42,657 bases of DNA, taken from the NCBI GenBank assembly GCA_905235705.1, contig CAJOML010000003.1, positions 1 to 42,657 on the forward strand, given 5' to 3'. A model generated the notes under the pieces. That model saw only the letters and a program-made list of their open reading frames with translations. It was not told where the DNA came from and did not search any database. This DNA is from an uncultured Bacilli bacterium (GTDB lineage Bacteria; Bacillota_I; Bacilli_A; RFN20; CAG-826). Shown piece by piece: positions 107 through 24,486 of the stretch. A program made the position numbers and the translations under genes. Numbering within the stretch: the first letter of the stretch is position 1; each line of letters opens with the position of its first letter.

Positions 107-135
107 TTGACTTTCCTGAGTTATGGCCCTATACT
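107..135 (+). promoter_or_regulatory. sigma70/sigmaA promoter for a probably leaderless gene
   Basis: TTGACT (107-112), 17-nt spacer, TATACT (130-135). ATG at 143 follows 7 nt after the -10 box with no SD sequence. Confidence 0.75.
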
Positions 136-142
136 CGATACC

Positions 143-691
143 ATGTTAAGCGAAATTGAAGAAATGATCGTTTCAATGCAAACCATTTTAGGTAAGCAAA
201 GCGATTTTGAAGTCACGGTCAGACATTTTAATAGCCTAAAAGGGGTCACTGACATTGTTGGTCAAGGCTTCCTTAGCCGAGAAGAAGGGTATTATTTAGA
301 TGCGTCTTTCCTTTTCACCAAAGGGAAGAAATATCTTTATCTTTCCGATAACCAAGAGGTGAATTGCATTGGCGAAGGAGAGCCCCTTTCCCTTCGCGAT
401 TTTTTGCCGCAAAGCCTGGTTAAAAGCTTAGATGAAGCAAAGAAAGAGTTCGCTTCGATTGATAAAAGGGGAGCGTTATCTTTAAGGCGGGGCAGACAAA
501 TCAATATCATCATCAAAGATGACTTTATCAAAGAAATATCAGTGGTGGAGATGGATGATGTTTGCGTTGCCCCAAATGTCTATTCATCTGTCGAAAACGA
601 AACGACTTATTCCTTTACCCCAATCGAAAAAGGAAGCCGTCATTTAGACCAAGGGCGTCTTCAACATTTTAAGGATGCGAAGATAATTTAA
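143..691 (+). CDS. hypothetical protein (~182 aa)
   Basis: Open frame 107..691. The TTG at 107 is the -35 box, so ATG 143 is preferred. No recognisable motif. Confidence 0.6.
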   Translation: MLSEIEEMIVSMQTILGKQSDFEVTVRHFNSLKGVTDIVGQGFLSREEGYYLDASFLFTKGKKYLYLSDNQEVNCIGEGEPLSLRDFLPQSLVKSLDEAKKEFASIDKRGALSLRRGRQINIIIKDDFIKEISVVEMDDVCVAPNVYSSVENETTYSFTPIEKGSRHLDQGRLQHFKDAKII

Positions 692-698
692 GATACAC

Positions 699-1421
699 GT
701 GAGTTTATTTATGGTGGCGAAAAAGAGATTATTGATATATATCATTGTCGAAGTCGCTTTACTCCTAACTTTGGTTGGCTTTCAAATCGCAACCGTGATA
801 CAGGGCTATAAAGTCTACGATAAAAGCGCCCCCCTGTTTTATCCCTATATCGCCTTATTCCAGGTGAGTTTAACATTTATCTCACTTGCCTTTGCTTTAA
901 TCGAATTCATCATCAGCAAAAGGAAAAAGGCTTATTTTGTTTGGCCTTTATATTTTTTGATCATTTCCATCGCCGATATCTTCTTTTCCTTAACCCCATA
1001 TGTCCTCGGTGGTCATATTGGCTTTACGTGCGCTTATTTGTTGTTTCTTTTCTACCGTAAGCCTAAACGTTTCGAATATGTCATCTACGGGGTTTTAATT
1101 GCCGCTGGAATTTCAATCCTAGCCATCATCAAAAAACTTAGCCCGATGATTGGGGTTGATATAGCTTTAGGGGTGCTTCTCATATCGAATTTAGTTGCCA
1201 CGTGGATTAAATATGGGAAAAGCAAAGACAAAAATATCAGACTTTTCGCCATCGCCTTAACCATTATCGTCATCAGCGATTTGACTATCGCCTTAAGGGC
1301 CGTGATTTCAAATCCATTGGCTTTAAATCATGCCATTAGCCTTATCACGTGGCCGACCTATATTGCCGGGAATATCCTGTTAGTTATCGCTTTCTTAAGA
1401 AAGCAGGAAAGCCTCTTATAA
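699..1421 (+). CDS. polytopic membrane protein, YhhN/lysoplasmalogenase-like
   Basis: About 8 hydrophobic segments. SIADIFFSL, IVISDLTIA and TWPTYIAGNILL resemble the YhhN GD / SD..IA / TY..AQ patterns. Confidence 0.55.
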   Translation: MSLFMVAKKRLLIYIIVEVALLLTLVGFQIATVIQGYKVYDKSAPLFYPYIALFQVSLTFISLAFALIEFIISKRKKAYFVWPLYFLIISIADIFFSLTPYVLGGHIGFTCAYLLFLFYRKPKRFEYVIYGVLIAAGISILAIIKKLSPMIGVDIALGVLLISNLVATWIKYGKSKDKNIRLFAIALTIIVISDLTIALRAVISNPLALNHAISLITWPTYIAGNILLVIAFLRKQESLL

Positions 1422-3524
1422 AGTGATATTTAAAATGTTTTCCTGATTGGAATAGGTGTAATCCACTTTTTTGGCAAGGCTACGGACAACCGATATTCCT
1501 AAGCCTCCGACTAAACCTTCTTCCAGACTATCTTGGACTAGTCTTTTTTTGGTTTCGAGGGGGTTAAATCTCTTTCCGTTATCTTTGATACGAAGGGTGA
1601 TTCCTTCCTCTTCACGAAAAAGGGAAATCTCGATATATTTTTTGCCCTTGGTTTTGGCGTAAGAAATGATGTTATTCATCACTTCATCTAAGATAACGCC
1701 GGCTTTTGAGGCGATGGCGATATCATCTTTTTCCAGGAGTTCACCGACTTTATCGCTTGCATCGGAGATATTTTCGAAGGTCGGGTTTTCATAATATAGA
1801 TGAAGGTCTTCTTGATTGAATTTAATGGCCATCATCGTCATATCGTCAAAGGCTTCCCCTTTGGCAAAGGCGGCCACCTCCGCGGTGACGTGATCAATCA
1901 ATTCCAGGGGCGAAGCGCCTTTGCCTAGGGCTTGGATAAGGCGCTGCTGACCGAATTCTTCTTCCTTTTCGTCGATCGATTCGTTGACCCCATCGGTATA
2001 AAGGAAAAGGATATCGTCTTTTCCAAGTTGGATTTCCTGCTCTTCAAAGGTCATGTTTTCAACTGCCCCAAGGACGAAATTGGGGGAGACTTCGATAGGC
2101 TTGGCATCTTTCCCTTTTTCAAGGCGAAGTGGGGCAAGGTGAGCGGCATTGGCGTAACGAAGAAGATATGTCTTTAAATCGATGATCCCGAAGAAAAGGG
2201 TGACGAAATAGTTTTCTTTATTGTTCTGGCAAAGACGGTTATTCGCCTCATATAGGATTTGGCCGGGGGTCTTGATGCTAGTAAGGGCAACCGACTTTAC
2301 CGCCTCCTTGGCCTTCATCATGAATAAAGCGGCCGGGATGCCTTTCCCTGAAACATCGGCGATGACGATGCCAAGGTGTTGATTATCGATGGGGAAATAA
2401 TCGTAAAAATCGCCGCCCACGGTCTTGGCTGGTTTCATGCTGGCGCGAAGTTCAATGCCATGAGTGAAGAAAGAGCCTTCGGGTAAGGATTCGAGTTGGA
2501 TTTTGCTGGCGACTTGAAGCTCGGCTTCCATTCTTTGCTGGATGGCGGCGTCTTTTTTAATATGGTCGACGTAGGTGATGATTTGCTTTTCCATGATGAT
2601 GATATCGCGGTAAAGATCGCTGATTTCATCATGGGTTCTGATGTTTGCCTCCACCTCTTTTAAGGGGAGGTTATTATTCATCATCGCCACAAAATCCTGC
2701 GCAGATCGCGAGGCTTTTTTGACGTTATTGACGATAAAAGCCTTAGCAAGGAAGGCGTAAGCGGTAACTAAAATCAAGGAAACGCCTAAGCAAGCAAGAA
2801 GCTCGGAAGCCACTTGTTCGGTTGTGTTTTTATTTAACGTGCCTAAGAGGATGACGTTTGTCGAATAGAAGATATAGGTCTTGCCATTAACTTCCCTAGT
2901 TAGGCTTTTGGCATAGGATCGGATGAAGTCGTTGTTAGAAGAAACGGTTTCGGTTAGTTCGCTTTGGGCAAAGAAAGCATTGGCCTCCTCGCTAGCGTTA
3001 GTGATGTATCCGCTGGGATTATCGGCGATGCCTTGGGTAGGGACGAAAAAGGAGATATCTTTCTTTCTTGCGACGTCATAAATGGAAATATCCATAAGCA
3101 TGGTGTCGTAATAGGCGTTGATGGTGGAGGCCTTTGTCAATAAATCGTTATAGATGTTGGCTCTTCTCCCCATATCTTGGCTAAATCCAAGGGTGCCGTT
3201 TCCTCCTCCGCCATAAAGAGAACGATTGAAGTCTTTAATATAAATAACCTTATCTTCCTCGCTTAGGGTGTCATAACGGTCGGCCATACCCTCATATTGC
3301 GCGAATAATGTATCGAAAATGTTGGTATCAGGACCAACCGAATCAAGAAAAAAGCCTGACATCAGGTGGTTAGCATCGCCACAATCATTGACATAGGATT
3401 GCTTCAATTTGTTATAAGAGACTATTGAAGAAATCGTTAAAGTGATGGCGGTGACGAAAAGAGTCAGCCCACCGGTCAGGGCGATGATTTTGGTTAGGAT
3501 TTGCGACCGCCTGATTTTAGCCAT
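1416..3524 (-). CDS. membrane sensor: TM, extracellular domain, TM, HAMP, SpoIIE/RsbU PP2C phosphatase fused to a C-terminal RsbW-like Ser/Thr kinase (HATPase_c_2)
   Basis: PP2C motifs VGGDFYD, IADVSGKG, LYTDGVNE and FDDMTM. HAMP-like THDEISDL. Kinase motifs LDEVMNNIISY, IKDNGKRFNP and GGLGI. Confidence 0.9.
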   Translation of the reverse strand: MAKIRRSQILTKIIALTGGLTLFVTAITLTISSIVSYNKLKQSYVNDCGDANHLMSGFFLDSVGPDTNIFDTLFAQYEGMADRYDTLSEEDKVIYIKDFNRSLYGGGGNGTLGFSQDMGRRANIYNDLLTKASTINAYYDTMLMDISIYDVARKKDISFFVPTQGIADNPSGYITNASEEANAFFAQSELTETVSSNNDFIRSYAKSLTREVNGKTYIFYSTNVILLGTLNKNTTEQVASELLACLGVSLILVTAYAFLAKAFIVNNVKKASRSAQDFVAMMNNNLPLKEVEANIRTHDEISDLYRDIIIMEKQIITYVDHIKKDAAIQQRMEAELQVASKIQLESLPEGSFFTHGIELRASMKPAKTVGGDFYDYFPIDNQHLGIVIADVSGKGIPAALFMMKAKEAVKSVALTSIKTPGQILYEANNRLCQNNKENYFVTLFFGIIDLKTYLLRYANAAHLAPLRLEKGKDAKPIEVSPNFVLGAVENMTFEEQEIQLGKDDILFLYTDGVNESIDEKEEEFGQQRLIQALGKGASPLELIDHVTAEVAAFAKGEAFDDMTMMAIKFNQEDLHLYYENPTFENISDASDKVGELLEKDDIAIASKAGVILDEVMNNIISYAKTKGKKYIEISLFREEEGITLRIKDNGKRFNPLETKKRLVQDSLEEGLVGGLGISVVRSLAKKVDYTYSNQENILNITL

Positions 3525-3528
3525 GTTT

Positions 3529-3828
3529 TTATTCGATATTCAGGAAACGGTTAAAGCCGGTCGCTTGGAAGATTTCGGTAACGACGGGATTGACGTGGGT
3601 GATTTTCAATGTCTTGCCTTCGGCTTCGGCGTCTTTCTTAAAGACGATGAGGGCTCTTAAGCCAGCCGAGGAGATATATTGGAGTTTGGCAAAATCAAGG
3701 ACCAAGTCGAATCCTTTTCTTTCCTCCAAGGTGATTTTATCGGTCAATTCTTGGGCACCGACGGTATCCATTCTTCCTTCTAAGAAGATGGTGAGGGTGC
3801 CTTCTACTTTATTTGAGGTGATTTCCAT
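3529..3828 (-). CDS. STAS-domain anti-sigma factor antagonist (RsbV/SpoIIAA-like)
   Basis: 99 aa. LEGRMDT, LDFAKLQYISSAGLRAL (phospho-acceptor Ser) and VTEIFQATGF. Confidence 0.92.
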   Translation of the reverse strand: MEITSNKVEGTLTIFLEGRMDTVGAQELTDKITLEERKGFDLVLDFAKLQYISSAGLRALIVFKKDAEAEGKTLKITHVNPVVTEIFQATGFNRFLNIE

Positions 3829-3846
3829 ATGGGTAACATCCTTTCT

Positions 3847-6800
3847 TTATATATCATCCCGGTCGAAGAAGCCGAGGGTTTCAAGCGCTTCGATGGCTTT
3901 CTTGAGGTATTCGAAGTCGGTAATGGGCCAACGATACCCTAGACGATACAGGGCCTGCACTGAATAGGATACATCGGAATCGATGAATTCGTGAGAGCGA
4001 TTATCACTTGAAGCGTAAGAAATAAGCGAAGAGACGATAGGCGCTTTCTTTTCGTCTAACATGGCTCCCTTCATGTTTGCTTTGAAGGTTTCGTCGTCGA
4101 CATTATCGATTTTGATGCCGATAAGATTCATGGCGGCGATGATATCGGCCATCTGGACGCGGTGGCAATTGAAGGAATGGAAGACGGTATATTCTACGGG
4201 TGTGGTGGCGAGTAAAAGAATCGTCTTCGCCGTTTCGTCGATCGGTGAGAAGTCGGTTTCCTTATGAAGCCCGGAGATGGGGAATTGGCCAAGGACCTTA
4301 TAACCTTTAAGGTTACGCATGAAGGCGTTGGTGACGGAATTGATTTGGAATTCGCCGTCGCTTTGTCTAGGCATAAGGTTGCCAACGCGGATGATTTTGG
4401 CATCCAGACCATCGTTTTCGATGGCGTCTAAGATGGCTTCTTCGGCTTTGAATTTGGAATGGCAATATTTATTGGAGATATCCTGCCCGAAATAGAGCTG
4501 ATCCTCTTTCATCTTATAATTAGAAGGGAATTTATGGTCGATGTTTTCGCCGGCTACCGATAAGGTCGAGACTTGGATGAATCTGGCTTTTTTCGCTTTG
4601 GCGACTTCGATGAGGTTTTTTACCCCGCCGACATTGACTTTTTCGATGATGTCGGAGCTAGCGAAGTGTTTGACGATCGCGGCCGCGTTAATGATGGTAT
4701 CGAATTCCATTCCCTCAAGACGTTCGAGAAGGTGGTCATCGGTGATATCCTCGCCGACGACTTTGACATATTTTTCGACCTCCTCTTCCAAAGGAGAATC
4801 GAAATAATACATGAGTAACCCTTTGATACGGTCAAGGGGGTCAAGTGTTTTCGAACGGACCAAAATGGTGGTTTCTATTCCTTGGGCAAGCAATTCGCGG
4901 AAGATATGGATGCCAAGGAAGCCAGTGGCCCCGGCAAGGAGGACTTTGCCGAGTTCCCTTTCTTTCTTAATGCCACCAAGGAAGGCGACGTTATTATGGG
5001 ATAAGGAAGAACGCTCGGCATCGTCGAGTGAGACGACTTTTTCTTCTTTGGGGGCGTTATCTTTATTCGATTCCATATAGGCGGCAAGTTCACGTGGGGA
5101 AGGATGGGCGAAGATGTCTTGATATGAGAGCGAATATCCCTTATTTAAGGCGAAAACGACGACTTTTGCGGCGCTTAAGGAAGTTCCGCCGATATCAAAG
5201 AAGCTATCATTTGCCCCGACTTTATCTAGCCCAAGGATTTGCTGATATGCCTCGGCAAATTCTTTTTCCAAAGGCGTTTCAGGGGCGACATATTCGGAGG
5301 AAGAATCAACGAAGACGGGTTTAGGAAGGGCGCGCTTATTGACTTTCTGATTTTGGTTAAGGGGGATCGCATCAAGCTGCATGATAGAAGAAGGCACCAT
5401 ATAAGCGGGTTTATTTTGCTTGATATGGGCTTTTATGGCATTGATGTCCAAATTGCTGGAGGCGGTGAAATAAGCGGCGAGGAATTTGCCGCCGGACTCG
5501 CTATCGAAAGCCTGGACGGTCGCATCTTTAATCCCGGGGAAGGAACGGATAGCCATTTCGACTTCCCCAAGTTCGATACGGAAGCCACGGATTTTCACCT
5601 GCCCGTCATTACGTCCGATAAAGTCGATTTCGCCATTATATAGACGCCTGACGATATCGCCGGTTCGATAGGCACGTTCATATCCTTTTTCATCGGAAAA
5701 AGGGTTTTTGACGAAAGAAGCAGCCGTTTTTTCGGGCAAATTCAAATATCCTAAGCCAACCCCATATCCGGAAATATAGAGTTCGCCAAGGGCACCGATA
5801 GGAAGCTCTTTGCCTAACCGATCAACGACATAGAGACAGTAATTATCCAATGGTTTTCCAATTGGCACGCGGAGATCTAATCCACTCACCGGATGAGCGG
5901 TGGAGAAGATCGTGCATTCCGTCGGTCCATAGCCATTGTGGAGAGTATAACCGGCAGGAGGTTCAATCGGGACGAGCTTTTCTCCGCCGACGGAGAGGTG
6001 ATGGAGGGAGCTCTTGCCGATTTCGCTAGCGAATAGACGTCCGACCTGCGTCGTCATGAAGCTATGGGTAACCCCATTTTTCTCAAAATAGGCTTCGAGT
6101 TGGTCGAGGTTCATGCGGATATCATCGGGCACGACGCAGACACCGGCCCCGCAAGTCAAGGCCGGATATAAATCCATCATCGAGGCGTCAAAGCCGAATC
6201 CGGCATAGGCGGCGACGACGTGATTGGGTTTCAAATCATAATAGCGATGATACCAGTGGCAGAAATTGATGAGGTTGCCTTGGGTTAACATCACCCCTTT
6301 AGGTGTACCGGTGGTGCCGGAGGTATAAAGAAGAATCATCAAATCGTCAAAAGAAGGACCCTGCAAGGCAATGTCTTCTTTAGGAAGGGAAGCGAAATCT
6401 TTGGTGAAGAGGACGGGCTTATTCCAGCTTGGTAGTTTGGAAAGAAGTTCTTCATCGGCGATAAGAATCATCGAAGAGGCGTCTTCGACCATAAAGAGCA
6501 AACGCTCTTCCGGATAAGAGCAATCCAAAGGTTGGTAGGCAGCCCCTGTCTTCATCACGCCTAAGGTGGATAAGACCATATTTTGGCTGCGGTTAATCAA
6601 GATAGAAGCGACTTTTCCTTTGCCTAAGCCTTGCTTAGCCAAAGCAAAGGCGATGCGGTCGGTGATTTCATCGACTTCTCGATATGTGAGTTTTTTGTCC
6701 TTATAGATGACGGCGACGTTGTTTGGATAGGTTTTGGCCGCTTTCTTGAAGGTGCTAATTAAGTCGGTTCTTTCAATCGGGGAATCAGTCGCATTCCACT

Positions 6801-9800
6801 GATCTAATTGGGCCTTCTTTTCTTCATTTAAGAAGGACATGTCATCGGGATCAACGCCATGGAGGAGTTGATTAAAGGCAAGCGAGGTGGCTTCTAATAA
6901 AGAAGTGACACTCCAAGCCTGATAACGGTCGCCATCATATTCGAAATGGAGACGATATCCTTCTTGCGTATCGGAAATGCTTAGCAATAAGGCGGCTTTG
7001 GCTTCGTTAAGGGAAAGCAAATCGATTCCTTCGATGGGCATATCGCCAAAGCTATAGCCTTGGGCGATTTTTCCTTCATAGACGAAGAGGATATCCGCCC
7101 TCATCTCGAATTCGTGGGCGATATCGGCAAAGGAGAAGGAATCATTAGCCATGCTTTTTTTGATTTGTTCGGCCACGTCTTGGACGTAACTTGTCCCCTT
7201 TTTACCGGGGAAGGGATCGCAGGTCACGGGTAAGGTATGAACGAACATACCGATGGAAGAACGAAGTCTTGCGTCGTTTCTGCCGTTATAAACGGTTGCA
7301 AAAATGGCATCATTTCGATTTAAGAATTTCGCAAGGGCTAGACCGAAAGAAGCAATCCAAAGGCTATTGGGGGTGGTTTTGGTGGAGGAGAGGAAGCTTT
7401 CGACTTCTTCTTTATCCGCTTTTACATCGATTTCGACTTCTTGTTTGCCCCTTCCTTTTTCGGCGTGATCGGGGACGGGGAGGCAATCGATGTCGCGACC
7501 TTCCAAGATGCTTGCATAATGCTGTTTTGCCTGATTGTATTCCTCACCTTGACGGAGCTTTTCTTCATCAAGGGACAAATCGAATTCGCTGTAGGCTTCT
7601 TTTTCTAGTTTCTCCCCCTTATAGGCGCGGTCGATATCTTTCATCAAGACGTCAAGGGATTCGCCATCGAAAATCATATGGTGGGCATCGAAGAAGAAGA
7701 CGTTTTCGGATTTGCCCTTAAGTAAGGCAACGCGAGTTAAGGGATCGTGGATGATATCAAAAGGCCTAACTAGGCTTTGCGCCCCGCCTTCTAAAGTATC
7801 GAGGTCAAAATGTCCGATAGGAAGGTCGCTTTCATCTTGGCGGAGAATCCTAAATTGCCCTTCTTCGTTGCTAATCAAACGGACTTTTAGATAAGGGTGG
7901 GCATCGAGAGCCTCTTTAACCGCTTTTGCGAAACGGTCGAGGTCGATTCCTTTAGGCAAGGTGATGGCGGTCGGCACGTTATAGATGGTGGTGTCAGGAT
8001 GGGCTAATGCCTCGGTAAGGATGCCTTGTTGGGCGGAAGTAAGAGGGTAATCTTTTTGTAAGGCATGGGTCTCGTCATTGTCTTTTTCGTTTAAATAGGC
8101 AAGGAGCTTCTCAATGCTTGAATGATTGACGAGTTCGCTTACGCGGACCGATTTATGAAGGAGGGAAGAAAGCTCGGATGTGAATTGCATGGCGCTAAGG
8201 GAGGTAAGGCCGATTAAATCGAAATCATCGGTAACCCCGAAATCACCATAGCCAACGATGCGGGCCAAGGCTTGATAGACTTTTTCCTCAAGTTCGTTAC
8301 GCGGGGCAATCGATGCGATGGAGGCGTGAGTTGGTTCAGGCAAGGCTTTGCGGTCGATTTTGCCACCGGGAGTCATTGGCATTTCATCAAGACGGATGAA
8401 AACGGTGGGGACCATGTATTCGGTTAAGCGCGAACCCATCTTGGCCTTGAGGTCGTTTTCATCAATTTCCCCTTCGGCTGAATAATAAAGGACAAGTTGC
8501 TTGTTTTTGACGCTGGCGAGGACTTGTTTGATATGAGGATAAGAGGAAGCGGCGTTTTCGACTTCGCCAAGTTCGATGCGGAAACCTCTAAGTTTGACTT
8601 GGAAGTCGATGCGTCCGCAGTATTCGAGTTCGCCTTCTTCGTTATATTTGGCGAGGTCACCTGTTTTATACATCTTCTCTCCAGGTAAGAAGGGGCAGGG
8701 GATGAAGCGTTCTTCGTTGAGTTCGGGACGATTATAGTAGCCACAGCTCATTTGAATGCCAGAAAGGCAAAGCTCGCCGATCATGCCACGAGGCAAAAGA
8801 TTCCCGAAAGGATCGCAGATGAAAGAATAAGAATTCGGGACGGCCCGACCAATGGGAATATCTTTGTCTTTTTCCTGGTCGACTAAATGGGCGGATGAAC
8901 AAACCGTGAATTCGGTTGGGCCATAGCCGTTATAGACGCGGATATTCGTCTTTTTGGTGGGCAGTAATTTTTCACCACCGACGACCATGTAATTGAGCTT
9001 TAAATCGGGATGGGCATTGATTAAGGACATACCGATTTGGGTGGACATCGTCAAGCCGGTGATTTTGTTGTCGCGAAGATAAGCGTAAATCAAATCCAAA
9101 TCCATGCGCACTTCTTCGGAGATGATATGAAGTTCCCCTCCGACGGATAAGGAAGCGAAGATATCGTGGACGGAGGCATCGAAAGAGAAGGAGGCGTGGA
9201 CGGCGGCGACGCTTTGCTCGGAAAGATCAAATGCGGCGATATGCCAAGAGAATTCGGCCACAAGCGATTTATGGAGGATAACGACGCCTTTAGGCTTGCC
9301 CGTTGAGCCCGAGGTATAAATCATATAGGCACGTCCATCAAGTTTGGAAAGATTGATCGGTTCGGCTTGTTTGCATTCTTCGAGCATTTTTTCGATGAAT
9401 GGTTCGTCTAAAACGAATTTCGCGCCGGAATCCTCGATCATATATTGGATACGGTCGGCGGGATAAGTGGGGTCAACCGGGATATAAGCCCCGCCGGCTT
9501 TCATAATCCCAACCAGGGAAGAGATGAATTCTTTGACTCGTTCGGTTTTGATGACGACGAAATCATTAGGCTGCAAGCCGTGATTAAGCAAATAGGAAGC
9601 GATGCGGTTAGAGACTTCATCTAATTCGCCATAGGTATATGACCCGTTTTTCGCGATGACGGCCTTTTTATTTGGATGTTTCTTGATTTGCTCCAAGAGG
9701 ATATCGATGAAAGTTTTATCTTTTTGATAATCGAGGTCTCCACCATAGGAAAGGGCGATAAGTTCTTTCGTTTCTTTTTCATCGACGATCGTGATTTCTT

Positions 9801-11052
9801 TTGTTTTTGCCTTGGTGAGGAAGCCAAGTAGCACTTTGCCGTAAGAAACGAGAAAGCCTTCGATAAAAGCTTCGCTATAGAGGTTAGCTTGATATTGGAT
9901 GGAAGCGACCATTTTGCCATTTTCGACATAGACGGAAAACGACATCTTCTCGCCGGTGGCTTGATAAGGTAAATGCTCAAATGGGGCTTTCTCCTCTCCC
10001 CATTTTTGCATGTCATAGAGGGTGCCTTGATAAGCGAAAAGGATATCGCTGGTATAGCCGCTACTGGAGGCAAGTTCGGAGAATGAATAAGCGTCATTGG
10101 CCCTTGTCCCCATGATCTGGGCTTTCATCTTGGCTAGATGTTGTAAGGTTGTTTCTTTGGGATCGATGATAGATAAGACGGGGAGGGTGCGGACAAACAT
10201 CGAGACGGTGCGATCGGTGGAATGGTCGTGACGTCCGATATAGATGGTGGCAAAAGCGGTCTTCTTCGTATTTGCATATTCGCTAAGAAGATAACCAAAT
10301 GCGGAGGTGGTTAAAACGGCGGGGGTGATATCGTTTTCTTTGTAAAAGGCCTTGATTTTATCGAAATCGATATCATATGAGGCTTTCTTTTCTTGAATCG
10401 AAACGGTGGTTTCTTTTTTATCTCCGGCGGGGATAGTGACTTCTTCGACGTCCCGGAAAGTCTCCAAATACCATTTCTTCGCTTCTTCGAAAGATTGTTC
10501 CCTTCTTTTGAGCTCGTCATTAGCGGCATCGAAGGCGGTGTAGGTTTCTTTTTCGATTTCCTTGCCTTCATAAGAAGCGGCCATATCCTGAAGAAGGATT
10601 GTCATAGAGAATCCATCGTAGACGATGTGATGGATATCCATAAATAGATAAACGGTGCCTTCGACTTCATATATGGCAAAACGGAAGAGACGGTCTTTAT
10701 CAAGATTAAAGGGGACGATGAGGCTTTCTTTTGCCTTGGTCCATTCTTGCTGATTTAAATGAACGACTTTAACGATTTCTTCCTTTTCTTCTAAGGGATG
10801 ATAGCGCATTAAGGGGAGACCGTCCTCGCCAAAAGCGATTTGCGAAAGCAGACCTGGGTGGCAAGCGAGCGTTTTTTCAACGGCGATTTTTAAGCGATCG
10901 ATATCGATTCCTTCAAAACGAAGCAAAGTCGGATTGTTATAGACGCTTTCGCCAACCCGTTGCATGCAGGATAGATAAATCCCCAATTGGGCTTGGTTAA
11001 GTGGCGCTTCTGATGTAGAAGCAAACGACTCGCCAGCAGATAAAGAAGACAT
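3847..11052 (-). CDS. bimodular non-ribosomal peptide synthetase C-A-T-C-A-T-R with a terminal thioester reductase
   Basis: C domains HHIVYDG and HHMIFDG. A domains YTSGSTGKPKG / YTSGTTGTPKG, YGPTE, YKTGDL / YRTGDI and GFRIELGEVE. T domains FDLIGLTSL and FFDIGGTSL. R domain GATGFLG and YCHSK. G-rich SD precedes the ATG. Confidence 0.95.
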   Translation of the reverse strand: MSSLSAGESFASTSEAPLNQAQLGIYLSCMQRVGESVYNNPTLLRFEGIDIDRLKIAVEKTLACHPGLLSQIAFGEDGLPLMRYHPLEEKEEIVKVVHLNQQEWTKAKESLIVPFNLDKDRLFRFAIYEVEGTVYLFMDIHHIVYDGFSMTILLQDMAASYEGKEIEKETYTAFDAANDELKRREQSFEEAKKWYLETFRDVEEVTIPAGDKKETTVSIQEKKASYDIDFDKIKAFYKENDITPAVLTTSAFGYLLSEYANTKKTAFATIYIGRHDHSTDRTVSMFVRTLPVLSIIDPKETTLQHLAKMKAQIMGTRANDAYSFSELASSSGYTSDILFAYQGTLYDMQKWGEEKAPFEHLPYQATGEKMSFSVYVENGKMVASIQYQANLYSEAFIEGFLVSYGKVLLGFLTKAKTKEITIVDEKETKELIALSYGGDLDYQKDKTFIDILLEQIKKHPNKKAVIAKNGSYTYGELDEVSNRIASYLLNHGLQPNDFVVIKTERVKEFISSLVGIMKAGGAYIPVDPTYPADRIQYMIEDSGAKFVLDEPFIEKMLEECKQAEPINLSKLDGRAYMIYTSGSTGKPKGVVILHKSLVAEFSWHIAAFDLSEQSVAAVHASFSFDASVHDIFASLSVGGELHIISEEVRMDLDLIYAYLRDNKITGLTMSTQIGMSLINAHPDLKLNYMVVGGEKLLPTKKTNIRVYNGYGPTEFTVCSSAHLVDQEKDKDIPIGRAVPNSYSFICDPFGNLLPRGMIGELCLSGIQMSCGYYNRPELNEERFIPCPFLPGEKMYKTGDLAKYNEEGELEYCGRIDFQVKLRGFRIELGEVENAASSYPHIKQVLASVKNKQLVLYYSAEGEIDENDLKAKMGSRLTEYMVPTVFIRLDEMPMTPGGKIDRKALPEPTHASIASIAPRNELEEKVYQALARIVGYGDFGVTDDFDLIGLTSLSAMQFTSELSSLLHKSVRVSELVNHSSIEKLLAYLNEKDNDETHALQKDYPLTSAQQGILTEALAHPDTTIYNVPTAITLPKGIDLDRFAKAVKEALDAHPYLKVRLISNEEGQFRILRQDESDLPIGHFDLDTLEGGAQSLVRPFDIIHDPLTRVALLKGKSENVFFFDAHHMIFDGESLDVLMKDIDRAYKGEKLEKEAYSEFDLSLDEEKLRQGEEYNQAKQHYASILEGRDIDCLPVPDHAEKGRGKQEVEIDVKADKEEVESFLSSTKTTPNSLWIASFGLALAKFLNRNDAIFATVYNGRNDARLRSSIGMFVHTLPVTCDPFPGKKGTSYVQDVAEQIKKSMANDSFSFADIAHEFEMRADILFVYEGKIAQGYSFGDMPIEGIDLLSLNEAKAALLLSISDTQEGYRLHFEYDGDRYQAWSVTSLLEATSLAFNQLLHGVDPDDMSFLNEEKKAQLDQWNATDSPIERTDLISTFKKAAKTYPNNVAVIYKDKKLTYREVDEITDRIAFALAKQGLGKGKVASILINRSQNMVLSTLGVMKTGAAYQPLDCSYPEERLLFMVEDASSMILIADEELLSKLPSWNKPVLFTKDFASLPKEDIALQGPSFDDLMILLYTSGTTGTPKGVMLTQGNLINFCHWYHRYYDLKPNHVVAAYAGFGFDASMMDLYPALTCGAGVCVVPDDIRMNLDQLEAYFEKNGVTHSFMTTQVGRLFASEIGKSSLHHLSVGGEKLVPIEPPAGYTLHNGYGPTECTIFSTAHPVSGLDLRVPIGKPLDNYCLYVVDRLGKELPIGALGELYISGYGVGLGYLNLPEKTAASFVKNPFSDEKGYERAYRTGDIVRRLYNGEIDFIGRNDGQVKIRGFRIELGEVEMAIRSFPGIKDATVQAFDSESGGKFLAAYFTASSNLDINAIKAHIKQNKPAYMVPSSIMQLDAIPLNQNQKVNKRALPKPVFVDSSSEYVAPETPLEKEFAEAYQQILGLDKVGANDSFFDIGGTSLSAAKVVVFALNKGYSLSYQDIFAHPSPRELAAYMESNKDNAPKEEKVVSLDDAERSSLSHNNVAFLGGIKKERELGKVLLAGATGFLGIHIFRELLAQGIETTILVRSKTLDPLDRIKGLLMYYFDSPLEEEVEKYVKVVGEDITDDHLLERLEGMEFDTIINAAAIVKHFASSDIIEKVNVGGVKNLIEVAKAKKARFIQVSTLSVAGENIDHKFPSNYKMKEDQLYFGQDISNKYCHSKFKAEEAILDAIENDGLDAKIIRVGNLMPRQSDGEFQINSVTNAFMRNLKGYKVLGQFPISGLHKETDFSPIDETAKTILLLATTPVEYTVFHSFNCHRVQMADIIAAMNLIGIKIDNVDDETFKANMKGAMLDEKKAPIVSSLISYASSDNRSHEFIDSDVSYSVQALYRLGYRWPITDFEYLKKAIEALETLGFFDRDDI

Positions 11053-11188
11053 AGAATTCCCCCTAAATAATCTTAAAAAGATTTTTTAACATCTTGTAGG
11101 ATAGTATAGTCTAAGGTCACTTTGCAAAAAAGGAAAAAACATTGAGGTAAGCCCCTAAGGGGATTAAAATTCTCCATGAGGTAAAATT

Positions 11189-12079
11189 ATGAAACAGATG
11201 CGTATTCCTTTATATGTTGTTCTTGGCATTGCCGTCATCGGAATCATCTTCGGTTCGTTCTTCGATCTGCAGATTTCTTCGGCGATTGCTTCCTCCACCA
11301 GCGGATTCGGCTTAGGCGTATCCATCGTCGGCCCAACCATCGGCTTTATGGGATTAGCTTTATTTGGAGGTGGATTCATTGGCTTAGCGATCCATGGCCA
11401 ATATCCAAAATGGGCCAAAGCCTTATTTTGGGTTGCCGGCATTGCCAGTTATGTCGTCTCCGTTTATTTTTCCGGCACCGAATATTTCGGCGTCAACGGA
11501 TTCTATGGCAATATCCCCGAATGGGTTGGCTTTATCATCGCCGCTATTCCTTTGGCCGGGGCTGAAGTCGGTGGCTATTTCTTATTTAGAAAAACCGAAA
11601 ATAAATATGCATGGGTTATCTATCTTATCGCCTTCGCCGTCTTGTTATTGACCCTTGTTGGTGGCGTTACGGGTTTAAAGGCGATTTTCCATCGTCCCCG
11701 GTTCCGCACCGTTTCGACAACTGCGATCGACTTCCATAATTGGTGGCAGCCCTGTCGCGATTATAAGAATTTGATGCAAGCATATGGGCTCGTCTCCGAA
11801 GAATTTAAATCCTTCCCCAGTGGCCATACCGCCGAAGCTAGCATTCTTCTTGTCACGACGACTTTCGCTCCGCTTGTGAATCCGAAATTAAAGAAGATTC
11901 AGCTTCCTTGTTTCATCGTCGCCTTTGCCTTTGTCATGTTAGTCGCCTTTGCCCGTATCTTAGCCGCCGCCCATTATTTAAGCGATGTCTCCATGGGGGC
12001 AACGATTACCACTATCTTCACCGTCATCGCCAACGAAATCGTGATTCACAACAAGCGACTTCAAGAAACAGCGAAATAA
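11189..12079 (+). CDS. PAP2 family membrane phosphatase
   Basis: Three catalytic motifs: KAIFHRPR, FPSGH and ARILAAAHYLSDV. Multiple TM helices. SD GAGG. Confidence 0.9.
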   Translation: MKQMRIPLYVVLGIAVIGIIFGSFFDLQISSAIASSTSGFGLGVSIVGPTIGFMGLALFGGGFIGLAIHGQYPKWAKALFWVAGIASYVVSVYFSGTEYFGVNGFYGNIPEWVGFIIAAIPLAGAEVGGYFLFRKTENKYAWVIYLIAFAVLLLTLVGGVTGLKAIFHRPRFRTVSTTAIDFHNWWQPCRDYKNLMQAYGLVSEEFKSFPSGHTAEASILLVTTTFAPLVNPKLKKIQLPCFIVAFAFVMLVAFARILAAAHYLSDVSMGATITTIFTVIANEIVIHNKRLQETAK

Positions 12080-12085
12080 AGCCTT

Positions 12086-12115
12086 AACAGCCAGGTGATG
12101 ACTTGGCTGTTTTTA
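12086..12115 (+). terminator. rho-independent terminator
   Basis: AACAGCCA-loop-TGGCTGTT followed by a T-run, directly after the PAP2 stop codon. Confidence 0.75.
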
Positions 12116-12161
12116 TTGAATATCCAGGGCGCTTTGATATGCTTTTAGGCGGAGGAAAATT

Positions 12162-12845
12162 ATGAAAAGAATCCAAGAAACCGTCGTTGCCTATATTTCC
12201 ATCATCTTTGGGGCTTTGCTCTTATTGATCTATCTCAATGCTTTAGGAGGTGGCAATGGATTAGGCATTGTCCTTGGCGTCATCGCTTTAGTCATGGCGA
12301 TTTATTATATCGCCATCGGCGTTATCGATGCTGTGGCAGGGGACAAATTACCCGCAAAAGCCAATAAAATCTTTGGCATCATTTCGATTGCCGCTTACCC
12401 CGTTTTATTCTTCGTCCAACTTTTGATCGTCATGATTGGGAATAAAGATTTCTTCGTCCCGACTGGTTGGGTGATTTCCATCTTAGGTATGGTCGCTTCG
12501 CTTGGTTTTGCCATTATCTACGTCGTTTCCAAATTCGCAGGCTCCTTAGCCTTAAAGAAGATTACCCGTCTTTGCGGTATGGTCTTTGCTTTGGTGATGC
12601 TACTCAACGTCTTATTCGATGCCTTTGGCGCACCTAACGCATTAGGACAGATTTCCCTGATCGGAACCATCACCTATATTGCTTATGGTTTTATGCTTTA
12701 CACGGCTTTAAAAGAGAAAGAAGAAGCGGTCGAGCCCGTCCCTGCCCCAGTCCAAGAAGAAGCCGAAGAAGCCCCCACTGAGATTGCTCCGGAAGAAGCT
12801 GAGCCTGAAGAAGAACCAAAAGAAGAACCTAAAGTCGAGGAATAA
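12162..12845 (+). CDS. hypothetical membrane protein (6 TM) with an acidic Glu/Pro-rich C-terminal tail
   Basis: Hydrophobic helices followed by EEAEEAPTEIAPEEAEPEEEPKEEPK. SD GGAGG. Candidate promoter TTGAAT-16-(TG)aTATGCT at 12116-12143. Confidence 0.8.
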   Translation: MKRIQETVVAYISIIFGALLLLIYLNALGGGNGLGIVLGVIALVMAIYYIAIGVIDAVAGDKLPAKANKIFGIISIAAYPVLFFVQLLIVMIGNKDFFVPTGWVISILGMVASLGFAIIYVVSKFAGSLALKKITRLCGMVFALVMLLNVLFDAFGAPNALGQISLIGTITYIAYGFMLYTALKEKEEAVEPVPAPVQEEAEEAPTEIAPEEAEPEEEPKEEPKVEE

Positions 12846-12851
12846 GCAATC

Positions 12852-12883
12852 AAAAAAATTGACCAGCGCCCGCTGGTCTTTTT
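12852..12883. terminator. bidirectional terminator
   Basis: A-run, GACCAGC-gccc-GCTGGTC, then T-run, between convergent genes. Confidence 0.8.
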
Positions 12884-14062
12884 CTATTCACGTCCTTCTT
12901 CTTTATTTTCGCTTGGGACAGTTTCTTCAGGTTTGGTTTCGCCTTTTTCCATTTTGCCAACCCGAATTTCGAAAACAAGGGAAGTAATAAAGGAAAAGAT
13001 GAGGATCATATAGAAAGAAATGCCTCTAGATAATAATGAAACGGCTTGGGCGACGTTATAGTCTAAAGCCTGCCCAGAACCTACGGTGATTGAGCCTAAG
13101 ACCACAGCCCCGACAAGCTCTCCTGCCCCAACTGCCCCGGGAGTAGGGAACCAAGCGACGCAGACGGTGGCGAAGGCATTTCCCAATAAGCAGACCCAGA
13201 AATCTTCGATCCCGATTTGTAAAGACGGCATTGCCATCATCAGAAAGAAGGGTATCGCGTAGCAAAAGCAAAGGATGACCATGCGTAAAACAACGGCCAA
13301 GATAAACGTCTTCCAATGTTTGATGACTTCTTTGGCGGCGGATTGGGCCTTTTCCAAATAGGCATCAAGAGCAGGTTGGAATTTAGAAAGCTTCCTTAGG
13401 AATTTGGGTTTTGTGATGAGTCTAAATAAGGCTGAGATGATTCTTCTTGCCGTTTTGGAGAATCCTAAGACGGTGAAGAAAGCAAGGTTAATGGAATTCA
13501 GGATAATCCCGGCGACGGCAATCCATTGTAAGGAAGATAAATCCATATCAAGGCCTTGGATATTGGAAAGCCCTTGGACGTAACGAGGGTAATAAATCAA
13601 GGAGATAAAGCCGAATAAGACCGAGCATAAAACGATGTTGATGTAATTCATCAAAATGACGCCTGTGGCTTTTCCCCCGTCGTCTCCGCTTTGATGGAGG
13701 GCGAAGGCTTGGAAAGGCTGTCCCCCGACGGAAGAGGGGGTGACGCCATTATAAAAATGCTCGCAGTTGCCAATTAAATATAAGTCGCTGGTTTTTGATT
13801 TTAAGCCCGATTTGCGGCTAATTAGAAGCAAAGGAAGGGGATATAAGGCAAAGAAAGCGACGCCGCAAAGGATAGCCAAAATCAAATAAACGACATTGCC
13901 GCCTTGGACCATTTCATTAAAAGCCCCAGCCATGCGGGAGAGGTCGCCGAAGGAGAAGATCAAAAACGCCACCAAAGCGACTAAGCAAATGAAAATGAAA
14001 ACGTAAATCGCGTTTTTCCTGAATCTCTTTTTCCGTTGGGTGTCCGTCGGCTTTTCGCTCAT
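12884..14062 (-). CDS. lysylphosphatidylglycerol synthase TM-domain / UPF0104 flippase-like protein
   Basis: FYNGVTPSSVGGQPFQ, FPTPGAVGAGE and LLSRGISFY motifs. About 8-9 TM helices. Confidence 0.85.
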   Translation of the reverse strand: MSEKPTDTQRKKRFRKNAIYVFIFICLVALVAFLIFSFGDLSRMAGAFNEMVQGGNVVYLILAILCGVAFFALYPLPLLLISRKSGLKSKTSDLYLIGNCEHFYNGVTPSSVGGQPFQAFALHQSGDDGGKATGVILMNYINIVLCSVLFGFISLIYYPRYVQGLSNIQGLDMDLSSLQWIAVAGIILNSINLAFFTVLGFSKTARRIISALFRLITKPKFLRKLSKFQPALDAYLEKAQSAAKEVIKHWKTFILAVVLRMVILCFCYAIPFFLMMAMPSLQIGIEDFWVCLLGNAFATVCVAWFPTPGAVGAGELVGAVVLGSITVGSGQALDYNVAQAVSLLSRGISFYMILIFSFITSLVFEIRVGKMEKGETKPEETVPSENKEEGRE

Positions 14063-14877
14063 TGTTTCTCGAATTCCTCGATACGTTGACTATATTGCCC
14101 TAGCACATCGTCATATCGGTTTGATTTTTCCCATGAGGCGACTTTATCGACATGCCAAGGTTTCACCGAGACGGTGTGGAAGAAGGGAAAGAAACGGATG
14201 GTCTTGGAGAAATGACGGATGACCGTATCGTCATGCCCGCGGGTTTGCTCGTTATAAATTTGGGGCAGGAATTTTTTCTTTTTGACGCAGCGGTTGAGGG
14301 CGTCTTGATCGGCAAGGATCGGGTGTTTCTTTTTTAGGTAATCGCGACAAGAGGCGAATAGGCCCGTTTCCTTGCATCTAGCCATATTAAAGAGAAGGAC
14401 GCCTGAATTTTGATAAGTCGCCCCAATCCAGAAAGTCCCCAATTGGTCATAGCATCCGGCGAATTCATAATCTTCCATATCGGTATGATATAGAGGCGAG
14501 ATATTGCCTAAAATGAAGGTATCGGTATCCAGATAAAGGACTTTTTCGGGAAGGGGAAGGAAGTCGGCGAAAAGTCGGCATAAGGCATAAGGGGTATAGG
14601 CCGAACGTTTGAATTTCTTGTGCCAGGTCTGGGCTTGATATTCTTTGCCGACATCATAAACGATGATGGAGGATTCTTCGTTTTTTTGTTTTAGAAGGGA
14701 ATCGATATAGGCGATTTGTCCCTCGCTAGGCGGGATAAATGAGGCGCCAAGATGATGCAGATCCATCGAAAGGAAATGGATGGTGACGGCCTCATCGTTA
14801 TAGGCTAGGTAAGATAAAACGACGACCAATAGGCCTTTCCCTACATTTTTATTCCCGGCTAACATTAAATGGATCAC
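14059..14877 (-). CDS. glycosyltransferase family 8
   Basis: YALCRLF, LYLDTDT (DxD), YQNSGVLLFN, DQDALN and KPW motifs. ATGA overlap with the flippase gene. Confidence 0.88.
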   Translation of the reverse strand: MIHLMLAGNKNVGKGLLVVVLSYLAYNDEAVTIHFLSMDLHHLGASFIPPSEGQIAYIDSLLKQKNEESSIIVYDVGKEYQAQTWHKKFKRSAYTPYALCRLFADFLPLPEKVLYLDTDTFILGNISPLYHTDMEDYEFAGCYDQLGTFWIGATYQNSGVLLFNMARCKETGLFASCRDYLKKKHPILADQDALNRCVKKKKFLPQIYNEQTRGHDDTVIRHFSKTIRFFPFFHTVSVKPWHVDKVASWEKSNRYDDVLGQYSQRIEEFEKQ

Positions 14878-14954
14878 GAAGGCAATTTACCATAGTTTTC
14901 CTCTAAATGCACGTAAAAGGGTTGAAACGGTTTTCATTTAATGAAAAATCCATA

Positions 14955-14990
14955 TAAAAAGGAAAACCCATCGCGAGGATGGGCTTTCCC
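14955..14990 (-). terminator. terminator of the galactan operon
   Basis: Minus strand reads GGAAAGCCCATC-ctcgc-GATGGGTTTTCC followed by TTTTT. Confidence 0.8.
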
Positions 14991-15007
14991 GAAAGGAGAG
15001 AGGAAGG

Positions 15008-16123: not shown

Positions 16124-16380
16124 TGTTCGCCCGCCTTATAAGGATGGAAGGAAAGGGGCTCGTTATCTTTGCCAATACCATCGATTCTATCCCCATAATG
16201 GGCATATTTCTCTTTGCAGTTTTCGTTCCAATGGAGGACTTTTTCCTCATCGCCATGGAAACAGCAACGGATGCAATAATATTCTTTCTTCTCCTCGTCA
16301 TAGAACATGTCGATGTCGAGGTCGCGTTCAAAACAAACGGGGCAACGGAAATTTAGTTTGCCTTTTTTACTTTGAGCCAA
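16120..16380 (-). CDS. small Cys-rich protein (CxxC-x19-CxxC, zinc-ribbon-like)
   Basis: RCPVC...YYCIRCC. TTG start preceded by a strong SD (AGGGAGG). Overlaps both neighbours, with ATGA coupling to the GH53 gene. Confidence 0.75.
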   Translation of the reverse strand: MAQSKKGKLNFRCPVCFERDLDIDMFYDEEKKEYYCIRCCFHGDEEKVLHWNENCKEKYAHYGDRIDGIGKDNEPLSFHPYKAGEQ

Positions 16381-18173: not shown

Positions 18174-18181
18174 AATGGTAA

Positions 18182-21630: not shown

Positions 21631-21637
21631 GTTGGGT

Positions 21638-24459: not shown

Positions 24460-24486
24460 GAAGGGATTTCCTTTTCCTATGAATGA

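Follow-up and report, generated by a model that had tools for sequence, protein, structure and literature searches.

An NRPS gene of an uncultured Bacilli bacterium shares an operon with genes for a STAS protein and for a membrane sensor in which a PP2C phosphatase and an RsbW-like HATPase_c_2 domain are fused. We propose, with moderate confidence, that the STAS protein and the sensor form a partner switch dedicated to the pathway and independent of any sigma factor, and that its target follows the logic of export, the transporter being encoded elsewhere. The observations behind this proposal can be summarised as (i) the domain content of the three genes; (ii) the conservation of their neighbourhood; (iii) the discordant histories of NRPS and sensor; (iv) the lack of an alternative sigma factor in near-complete relatives.

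Layout of the operon

The window is the whole stretch of DNA analysed here, 42,657 nt of contig CAJOML010000003.1 (GCA_905235705.1). The ORF list places all three genes on its minus strand, with the following features.

3847..11052, minus strand: NRPS of 2401 aa, domain order C(starter)-A-T-C-A-T-R, ending in a thioester reductase (Pfam, core motifs)
3529..3828, minus strand: STAS protein of the anti-anti-sigma type, 99 aa (Pfam STAS E 3e-15; profile match to structures)
3667..3669, minus strand: codon of STAS Ser54, the predicted phospho-acceptor (alignment to SpoIIAA and TM1442)
1416..3524, minus strand: membrane sensor, 702 aa, PP2C fused to HATPase_c_2 (RsbW-like Ser kinase) (Pfam, hydropathy)
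2802..3431, minus strand: extracytoplasmic domain of the sensor, aa 32-241, without known family (Pfam, AlphaFold, Foldseek)
1818..2384, minus strand: PP2C/SpoIIE phosphatase domain of the sensor, aa 381-569 (Pfam E 2e-47)
1422..1706, minus strand: HATPase_c_2 domain of the sensor, aa 607-701, likely STAS kinase (Pfam E 3e-14)
11053..11188, no strand assigned: 136-nt gap from the NRPS start to the divergent PAP2 gene, presumed promoter region

The NRPS and STAS genes are separated by 18 nt and the STAS and sensor genes by 4 nt, the sensor start codon lying 4 nt downstream of the STAS stop codon. A GGGGGA ribosome-binding site precedes the NRPS ATG, and the upstream neighbour of the NRPS is the PAP2 gene on the opposite strand. 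A consensus scan gave no minus-strand promoter match in 11053..11188; in the promoter/terminator scan, promoter-like sites did not rise above shuffles and no convincing site lay between the three genes. Pfam searches of the 28 other ORFs of the window found ABC sugar-importer permeases and a solute-binding protein, and no sigma factor, PPTase, MATE exporter or ABC exporter, in agreement with what had been read from the sequence alone. The sequence-only reading had further described NRPS, STAS and TM/HAMP/PP2C/HATPase genes on one strand with gaps of 18 and 4; the ORFs bear out the layout and Pfam the domains, except HAMP, for which the window sensor has no match even at E<=10. Weak HAMP matches occur only in homologues, at the same position (L019, E 3.6e-4; L081).

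The NRPS and its expected product

The Pfam content of the NRPS is two Condensation, two AMP-binding and two PP-binding domains with a terminal NAD_binding_4 reductase. Catalytic sites were scored with general NRPS motif patterns. The condensation motifs (HHIVYDG at 141, HHMIFDG at 1124), the A3/A5/A7/A8 motifs of both A domains, the carrier serines (GLTSL, Ser951; GGTSL, Ser1958) and the reductase motifs (GATGFLG at 2041, YCHSK at 2196) are all intact, in the C-A-T-C-A-T-R order of a reductase-terminated dimodular NRPS. Because the protein has a starter C domain and a terminal reductase, a product of the N-acyl dipeptide aldehyde type would be expected.

The STAS protein and the membrane sensor

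A profile of 10 such STAS proteins matches the structures of SpoIIAA, RsbV and TM1442, with E down to 9e-17. In the alignment, YISSAGL of the window protein is matched by FMDSSGL in SpoIIAA and by YMDSAGL in TM1442, and Ser54 falls on the first Ser after the Asp, the phosphorylated Ser58 of SpoIIAA. Ser54 is the predicted phospho-acceptor, and the window protein thus carries the phosphorylatable serine of an RsbU/V/W-type partner switch. STAS genes adjoining family NRPSs all encode Y[IVL]SS[AS]GL (30/30).

A hydropathy scan of the sensor predicts two transmembrane helices (13-31 and 242-260) flanking an ectodomain of ~210 aa. The ectodomain has no Pfam match at E<=10, and its AlphaFold model (mean pLDDT 60) no Foldseek match at E<=0.001. 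The weak top Foldseek matches of the model are mostly PDC/Cache-type sensor domains, a hint only. The ectodomain evolves faster than the cytoplasmic part, a divergence that is compatible with, and not diagnostic of, the NRPS product being the ligand of the sensor.

In the PP2C domain the motifs GDFYDY, DVSGKG, TDG and DDxT are invariant in 6/6 aligned homologues; across 25 cluster sensors they are kept in 22, 25, 24 and 20, respectively. The domain matches SpoIIE structures, and the PDB match 3ke6 is Rv1364c of M. tuberculosis. The HATPase_c_2 domain keeps the N-box DEvmNN and the G2 box GGLG, the latter as GG[FL]G in 27/28 cluster sensors. At the level of sequence the sensor therefore contains both the metal-binding aspartates of the phosphatase and the RsbW/SpoIIAB-like serine kinase of a partner switch, and its HATPase_c_2 domain is likely to be the STAS kinase. 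A second signalling pair, with STAS::APH, is found in the same genome as the window.

Sigma factors

RsbU/V/W systems normally gate a sigma factor. Textbook use of STAS, PP2C and HATPase_c_2 would have the kinase domain sequester a sigma factor like SigB or SigF, encoded at another place in the genome, and this factor would transcribe the NRPS operon. The MAG of the window has no Sigma70_r2 match and, at 76.6% complete, is too partial for its sigma content to be judged, which leaves some room for such a factor. Near-complete relatives that carry the same modules argue otherwise. G176 (97% complete) and G520 (96% complete, 9 contigs) each have one Sigma70_r2 match, the frames (439 and 435 aa long) being of primary-sigma size, and the additional sigma frames of G351, G162, G696 and G709 are only of ECF size (174-198 aa). 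The ~250-aa frame expected of a group 3 sigma factor was found in none of the near-complete relatives examined. The absence of an evident sigma target, first remarked upon for the neighbourhood, extends to the near-complete genomes of G176 and G520. Since these two have a primary sigma factor only, sigma control of this operon is unlikely, and we consider a classical switch very improbable.

Conservation and re-association

The family NRPS occurs in 35/401 genomes of the order, that of the window included. A first contig scan with a single sensor protein as query had returned only 3 loci, and the surveys were then made genome-wide. Counting was restricted to those 29 of 38 family loci whose flank past the 3' end of the NRPS measures at least 4.5 kb. 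STAS and PP2C are both present in 23 of them, and at least one of MatE::HATPase_c_2, STAS and PP2C in 27, although these genomes are related to one another, a single genus supplying many of them (11/13 sampled g10 genomes), and the counts overstate independence. None of the three was found at 7 non-family NRPS loci, 4 of which have a flank of at least 5.8 kb. Four loci fall just under the 4.5-kb threshold. Three of them (the window, L138 and L139) have STAS and PP2C, and the fourth, L145, has MatE::HATPase_c_2 only. Incomplete sets occur, as MatE::HATPase_c_2 only (L145, L148, L155) or without the sensor (L146, L161), and at two loci (L135 in G709, L152 in G426) all three genes are missing from the vicinity of the NRPS.

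The survey bears directly on whether the NRPS and a signalling pair unrelated to it are neighbours by chance. Fusions of PP2C with HATPase_c_2 abound (of 7999 proteins scored, 5200 reach E<=1e-10) and are found in other contexts, at 79 metagenome loci and in the STAS::APH-containing pair mentioned above, so that an accidental neighbour is conceivable. Because the pair is present in 23/29 family loci vs 0/7 non-family loci, the adjacency is more than chance, and the pairing on which the sequence-only reading was built is indeed conserved. The 18- and 4-nt spacing is operon-like, and the pairing survives inversion and partner exchange. Chance is the least probable of the explanations considered here.

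The partner exchange is seen when gene trees are compared. Type I clusters have the order PPTase - NRPS - MatE::HATPase_c_2 - STAS - sensor. The NRPSs of the window, G520, G351 and G696 form one clade (SH-aLRT 99), the Type II subclade, which is without the cluster MatE::HATPase_c_2 and PPTase genes. The sensors of the same four genomes, in contrast, are spread among those of Type I and derive from at least three lineages; a single clade for them was rejected (AU test, p 7.9e-07). Since the two trees disagree at this level, NRPS and sensor have been re-associated several times. The gene order of G520 is that of the window, and the STAS-sensor pair is inverted relative to the NRPS in G351 and G696. 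The conserved and repeatedly re-associated neighbourhood supports the view that this NRPS family is functionally linked to the STAS/PP2C-kinase pair. To this extent the signalling circuit suggested from the sequence alone is upheld.

The target of the switch

At least 17 loci have MatE::HATPase_c_2 between NRPS and STAS with the sensor also present. The fusion is a genuine family with 226 protein clusters, of which the top 120 all combine PF01554 with PF13581. It also accompanies STAS and PP2C sensors at loci with no NRPS (L060, L073, L080, L081, L090). The G2 box of the MATE tail reads S-T-S-G in about 134/142, vs GG[FL]G in the sensors; this difference suggests a docking or pseudokinase role for the tail. 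A MATE protein with an RsbW-like tail in most relatives points to export as the output of the switch, and here we depart from the earlier suggestion that STAS phosphorylation acts upon the NRPS.

In the window no MatE::HATPase_c_2 gene lies between NRPS and STAS and no Sfp-type PPTase gene is linked to the cluster upstream of the NRPS. MatE::HATPase_c_2 was found neither elsewhere in the window nor in the assembled part of the MAG (76.6% complete), and is also absent from G520 and G351. Unlinked Sfp-size PPTase candidates are present in the window's genome (C5) and in G520, G351 and G696. The sensor of G520 holds the only HATPase_c_2 domain of that genome, so the Type II subclade is without the classical third partner and export control there is an extrapolation. 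A candidate transporter comes from the congener G709, where the same kind of STAS-sensor pair lies directly downstream of two ABC exporter genes. Because orthologues of these two genes (57-64% identity) lie on contig C70 of the window's genome, the C70 pair is our candidate. It has no STAS gene after it and is tied to the NRPS solely through the G709 arrangement. For the window we favour an exporter encoded elsewhere as the target first, then the NRPS itself.

Direct control would require that dephosphorylated STAS, or the kinase domain for which it competes, binds the NRPS and switches initiation or reductive release. The NRPS is the sole conserved neighbour of the pair in Type II (in the other orientation in G351 and G696), G520 has neither another HATPase_c_2 domain nor an alternative sigma factor, and HenR/All4160 provides a precedent for a partner-switch-like system acting directly on a biosynthetic enzyme (preprint 10.64898/2026.04.08.717354). 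Against this, Type II NRPSs have no extra domain (2401-2403 aa vs 2408-2415 aa in Type I) and most relatives have an obvious partner that is not the NRPS. No NRPS-STAS fusion was found; the four longer related STAS proteins contain no NRPS domains, a weak test confined to 175-2000 aa. We regard direct control as possible and rather doubtful. Type II STAS phosphorylation would then turn the assembly line on and off, and the signal could be the exported product of the cluster, read by the fast-evolving ectodomain in an autoinducer-like loop, a suggestion that we make equally tentatively.

Loss of the exporter could also have left a remnant, with STAS and sensor phosphorylating and dephosphorylating each other to no output. 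The missing PPTase and MatE::HATPase_c_2 genes would fit such a remnant, as would the partial sets elsewhere (L145, L146, L148, L155, L161), and the cluster family does decay, with in-frame stops in the NRPS genes of three congeners (G618, G646, G686). However, all three window genes are intact, catalytic motifs included, and the pair is kept with the NRPS subclade in at least four genomes. Recruitment of sensors from at least three lineages argues for selection on the pairing, and the unlinked PPTase candidates noted above also speak against decay. A remnant is accordingly improbable.

Model for the switch

We return to the favoured reading, a dedicated switch with a transporter as target; its binding and phosphorylation steps, like the product and the target in the window's genome, are what we infer. 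The three genes would belong to a single operon within a conserved family of NRPS clusters from small-genome rumen and gut Bacilli, in which the STAS protein and the 702-aa sensor act as a pathway-dedicated, sigma-independent partner switch. An external cue sensed by the ectodomain would shift the balance between the sensor's own HATPase_c_2 kinase and PP2C phosphatase, and with it the phosphorylation state of STAS Ser54. Dephosphorylated STAS would bind a partner and change its activity post-translationally. In most relatives this partner is most likely the cluster MATE exporter with its RsbW-like C-terminal domain, such that peptide export is gated. The subclade of the window would have lost the exporter and PPTase genes and kept STAS and sensor, and for it we favour the same logic with a transporter encoded elsewhere, the ABC exporter pair on C70 being the candidate.

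To our knowledge, accounts of how natural-product pathways are regulated nearly all concern transcription. In this case a full phosphorylation switch lies inside a biosynthetic operon, in hosts without an alternative sigma factor for such a switch. If the model is correct, rumen and gut bacteria would use a signal-gated, post-translational control over whether a peptide aldehyde of the protease-inhibitor type is secreted (or made). This would account for the silence of such clusters in culture and in heterologous hosts, and STAS Ser-to-Ala replacement or deletion of the sensor might turn them on. The exporter-less variant in the window is the informative case, because its target is not guessable from the genes.

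Comparison with known systems

The window shares a phospho-serine STAS protein, a PP2C phosphatase and a HATPase_c_2 kinase with RsbU-RsbV-RsbW-sigmaB and SpoIIE-SpoIIAA-SpoIIAB-sigmaF of B. subtilis. Unlike these, it is without a sigma factor, kinase and phosphatase are fused in a membrane sensor, and the module sits inside a biosynthetic operon. In HsbR-HsbA (P. aeruginosa) and SypE-SypA (V. fischeri) a bifunctional kinase/phosphatase acts on a STAS protein with an output other than sigma, and Rv1364c (M. tuberculosis) is grouped with such sigma-independent bifunctional PP2C/kinase switches. These systems resemble the window in that a single protein is both kinase and phosphatase for STAS. 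A receiver or PAS domain provides their input, and their outputs are c-di-GMP, flagella or polysaccharide, whereas the window has a two-TM ectodomain as input and a natural-product pathway. The Type I clusters share with the window the architecture of both NRPS and sensor as well as the STAS motif, with sensors interleaved in the tree, and differ by the presence of MatE::HATPase_c_2 and PPTase genes.

Reductase-terminated NRPS clusters of gut anaerobes were reportedly described by Guo et al. (in Cell, 2017) and by Schneider & Balskus (2018, ruminopeptin). The products of gut-bacterial dipeptide-aldehyde NRPSs are dipeptide aldehydes or pyrazinones, according to a review (PMC12327764). The window NRPS is likewise reductase-terminated, a likeness of architecture.

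The M. ruminantium neighbourhood of NRPS, phosphatase and anti-anti-sigma genes, mentioned in the sequence-only reading, is confirmed by Leahy 2010 (PMC2812497). In the cluster mru0066-mru0071, mru0068 has on its flanks genes for a MatE pump, an anti-sigma factor antagonist and a pair of serine phosphatases, and Leahy et al. proposed sensing, regulation and export roles. The cluster is like the window in its two-module NRPS, terminal reductase and neighbouring serine phosphatase and anti-sigma antagonist, and unlike it in its archaeal host, two phosphatases and MatE gene within the cluster. In our literature search, Leahy 2010 was the only work found to connect STAS/PP2C genes with an NRPS, and no description of MatE::HATPase_c_2 fusions was found.

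In Anabaena PCC 7120, phosphorylation of a STAS domain directly controls polysaccharide synthesis in the partner-switch-like module HenR/All4160 (preprint 10.64898/2026.04.08.717354). The system is similar to our proposal in that STAS phosphorylation acts on biosynthesis without a sigma factor, and different in its separate kinases, its phylum and a target named by experiment, where the window is read from genes alone. Set beside these systems, the window operon is an exporter-less variant of known sigma-independent partner switches.

The operon and its surroundings

Three tightly spaced open reading frames occupy 1416..11052 on the minus strand, with gaps of 18 and 4 nt. ORF scanning and Pfam agree that the same-strand NRPS, STAS and sensor genes described in the sequence-only reading are real.

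3847..11052, minus strand: nonribosomal peptide synthetase (NRPS), 2401 aa, C-A-T-C-A-T-R, with terminal NAD_binding_4 reductase (Pfam)
3529..3828, minus strand: STAS protein, 99 aa (ORF scan, Pfam)
1416..3524, minus strand: sensor, 702 aa, with SpoIIE/PP2C at 381-569 and HATPase_c_2 at 607-701 (Pfam)

The STAS gene is preceded by its own ribosome-binding site (AAAGGA), and the sensor gene starts 4 nt past the STAS stop codon. Judged by general NRPS motif patterns, the synthetase looks functional, with two HHxxxDG motifs, the core motifs of its A domains, a serine in each carrier domain and the reductase GxxGxxG/YxxxK all present. In alignment, Ser54 of the STAS protein falls on the phospho-serine of SpoIIAA, RsbV and TM1442, and comparison with homologues indicates that the sensor keeps the PP2C aspartate motifs and the N and G2 boxes of the kinase. 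A hydropathy scan places two transmembrane helices (13-31 and 242-260) around an outside domain of ~210 aa, which matches no Pfam family down to E<=10. The HAMP domain previously assigned to this sensor is not confirmed, having no Pfam match at E<=10; homologues alone match HAMP at the same position, and weakly. In 10 of 11 pairs, divergence is faster in the outside domain than in the cytoplasmic part, a pattern that would fit changing ligands and identifies no ligand.

Pfam identifies neither a sigma factor nor a PPTase nor a MATE/ABC exporter among the window's 28 other ORFs, in agreement with what had been noticed from the sequence. Neighbouring genes comprise a PAP2 gene in divergent orientation, a locus for galactan utilisation, housekeeping genes and two ORFs lacking a Pfam family (107..691 and 699..1421) that converge on the operon's end. 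The second of these (plus strand, 240 aa, about seven predicted transmembrane helices) overlaps the end of the converging sensor gene by 6 nt. The galactan locus (15008..25854, minus strand) encodes an AraC regulator, a solute-binding protein, a pair of GH53 enzymes, of which one has 877 aa and a Big_4 domain, and two BPD_transp_1 permeases that, at 409 and 530 aa, are unusually long. At 26753..30909 (plus strand) a 976-aa CoA-enzyme-activase-type protein (BcrAD_BadFG/DUF2229) precedes a 409-aa partner that matches DUF2229 weakly.

Conservation of the cluster

With the NRPS as query, two genome sets were searched, one of 400 from the class and then one of 401 from the order. Synthetases of the same family occur in 35 of the 401, the window's own genome included. 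They are spread unevenly: in the window's genus 6 of the 37 other genomes sampled carry one, as do 11 of 13 in one relative genus, g10. HMMs were built from the initial examples and run over the fetched loci, with parts cross-checked by Pfam; 29 of 38 family loci extended 4.5 kb or more past the 3' end of the NRPS. The pairing noted in the window is kept in relatives: STAS and PP2C genes are both present at 23 of these 29 loci, compared with none of these genes at seven control loci, in the same genomes, whose NRPS belongs to another family (four with at least 5.8 kb of flank), although the surveyed genomes are kin and the counts therefore not independent. At least one of MatE::HATPase_c_2, STAS and PP2C is found at 27 of the 29; four carry partial sets (L146, L148, L155, L161) and two have none near the NRPS (L135 in genome G709, L152 in G426). 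Among four loci slightly below the flank threshold, the full pair is present in the window, L138 and L139, and a partial set in L145. Single in-frame stops (TGA or TAA) interrupt the family NRPS genes on G618:C13, G646:C5, G686:C74 and G533:C73, which may be pseudogenes or assembly errors.

At most loci the order is PPTase, NRPS, MatE::HATPase_c_2 (about 585 aa), STAS and sensor (Type I). In the fusion, the MATE part is a full, DinF-BH-like transporter and the final ~145 residues form an RsbW-like domain. The N-box and a DDGxPFDP motif are conserved in this tail; at the G2 box about 134 of 142 sequences have S-T-S-G, whereas 27 of 28 sensors have GG[FL]G. We infer from these motifs that the sensor HATPase_c_2 would be the kinase and the MATE tail a docking site for STAS. 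The fusion forms a populated but unannotated family, which at E<=0.001 comprises 226 protein clusters. All of the best 120 carry PF01554+PF13581 (Atlas) and, where named, are called 'ATP-binding protein' or 'hypothetical protein'. Five metagenome loci (L060, L073, L080, L081, L090) combine the fusion and STAS with Cache- (dCache+HAMP) or 5TMR-LYT-type PP2C sensors and have no NRPS nearby, so the switch-gated MATE module extends beyond the NRPS cluster. The L090 transporter also matches MurJ and adjoins an LPG_synthase_C gene. In L146 (genome G605, 10268..15948) a 255-aa response-regulator protein takes the sensor's place after PPTase, NRPS, MatE::HATPase_c_2 and STAS; the radical-SAM/SPASM enzyme and C39-peptidase ABC transporter downstream look like a RiPP cluster.

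The window keeps STAS and sensor without MatE::HATPase_c_2 and PPTase (Type II) and is an exporter-less variant of the conserved NRPS-switch cluster. Genome G520 has the identical gene order with gaps of 11 and 7 nt, G351 (two loci) and G696 have the pair inverted, and further Type II loci lie on metagenome contig L041 and, with a different sensor, in G524.

Trees of the synthetases and sensors

A tree built on the A2-T2-R region unites the synthetases of the window, G520, G351 and G696 in one clade (SH-aLRT 99). The sensors of these four do not group this way in a tree of the PP2C-kinase region but are dispersed among those of Type I: the sensor of the window adjoins that of G671, G520's groups with that of G601 (SH-aLRT 98), and those of G351 and G696 fall within the g10 group. 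Constraining the four sensors into one clade, a group chosen from the NRPS tree with identity matrices known beforehand, costs 142.6 log-likelihood units (p-AU 7.9e-07). This NRPS lineage has thus been joined with switches of at least three origins, with the pair beside the NRPS each time. Of all the evidence for a functional link, this repeated joining is the strongest, and it holds independently of the exporter. A link between the switch and the NRPS pathway is well supported.

The switch and its possible targets

The window is contig C3 of a 1.26 Mb MAG in 88 contigs, 76.6% complete. Its NRPS is the only one in the assembled part, which holds two domains each of STAS, PP2C and HATPase_c_2; a candidate PPTase of Sfp size lies on C5, and there are three plain MatE genes. 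The second switch, on C31 (L005, 256..3292), is likewise sigma-less; in it a STAS domain fused to an APH-type (APH/choline-kinase-like) phosphotransferase (385 aa) lies ahead of a PP2C-HATPase_c_2 protein of 628 aa. HATPase_c_2 frames of the same size occur in G162, G176, G197 and G709, and STAS::APH fusions in G601, G709 and metagenome loci L049, L066, L083 and L109; in G601 and G709 the module directly adjoins an NRPS-type pair.

One candidate target is a sigma factor. No Sigma70_r2 match was found anywhere in the MAG, and its only strong Sigma70_r4 match is truncated where contig C21 begins and probably represents the primary sigma gene, cut by the contig end; the MAG itself therefore cannot decide the question. 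In line with the sequence-only observation that no sigma factor lies nearby, more complete relatives show no evident sigma target: G176 (Type I, 97% complete) and G520 (Type II, 96% complete, 9 contigs) each have a single Sigma70_r2 frame, of 439 and 435 aa, and in G520 the sensor's HATPase_c_2 is the sole such domain in the genome. Additional Sigma70_r2 frames in G351, G162, G696 and G709 are only of 174-198 aa, and none of the Sigma70_r2 matches in these genomes, G176 and G520 included, is of SigB/SigF size. Control through a sigma factor is unlikely.

Transport is a recurring theme. In Type I the HATPase_c_2 tail is carried by a MATE transporter, and in the congener G709 a STAS-sensor pair of the NRPS-linked kind follows two ABC exporter genes (ABC_membrane+ABC_tran) rather than an NRPS. 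There (L163, G709:C42, 2446..11721) the ABC pair, STAS and sensor converge on the STAS::APH module; G709's NRPS (L135) has one extra module and no switch nearby. Orthologues of the ABC pair (57-64% identity) lie on C70 of the window's genome, where no STAS gene follows them. By extrapolation from this theme, we favour an exporter encoded elsewhere as what the switch in the window would control. Direct control of the NRPS is a live alternative, with recent precedent for enzyme targets of such switches in Anabaena (preprint 10.64898/2026.04.08.717354).

Comparison with known systems

No description of MatE::HATPase_c_2 fusions was found in the literature searched. For the link between NRPS and STAS/PP2C genes, only Leahy et al. 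2010 (PMC2812497) was found there; the accessory genes in Guo 2017 and Schneider & Balskus 2018 lay outside the comparison. The Methanobrevibacter ruminantium parallel drawn in the sequence-only reading is correct: Leahy et al. place the same neighbourhood around mru0068 and venture sensing, regulation and export as its roles, and the bare arrangement has thus been published before.
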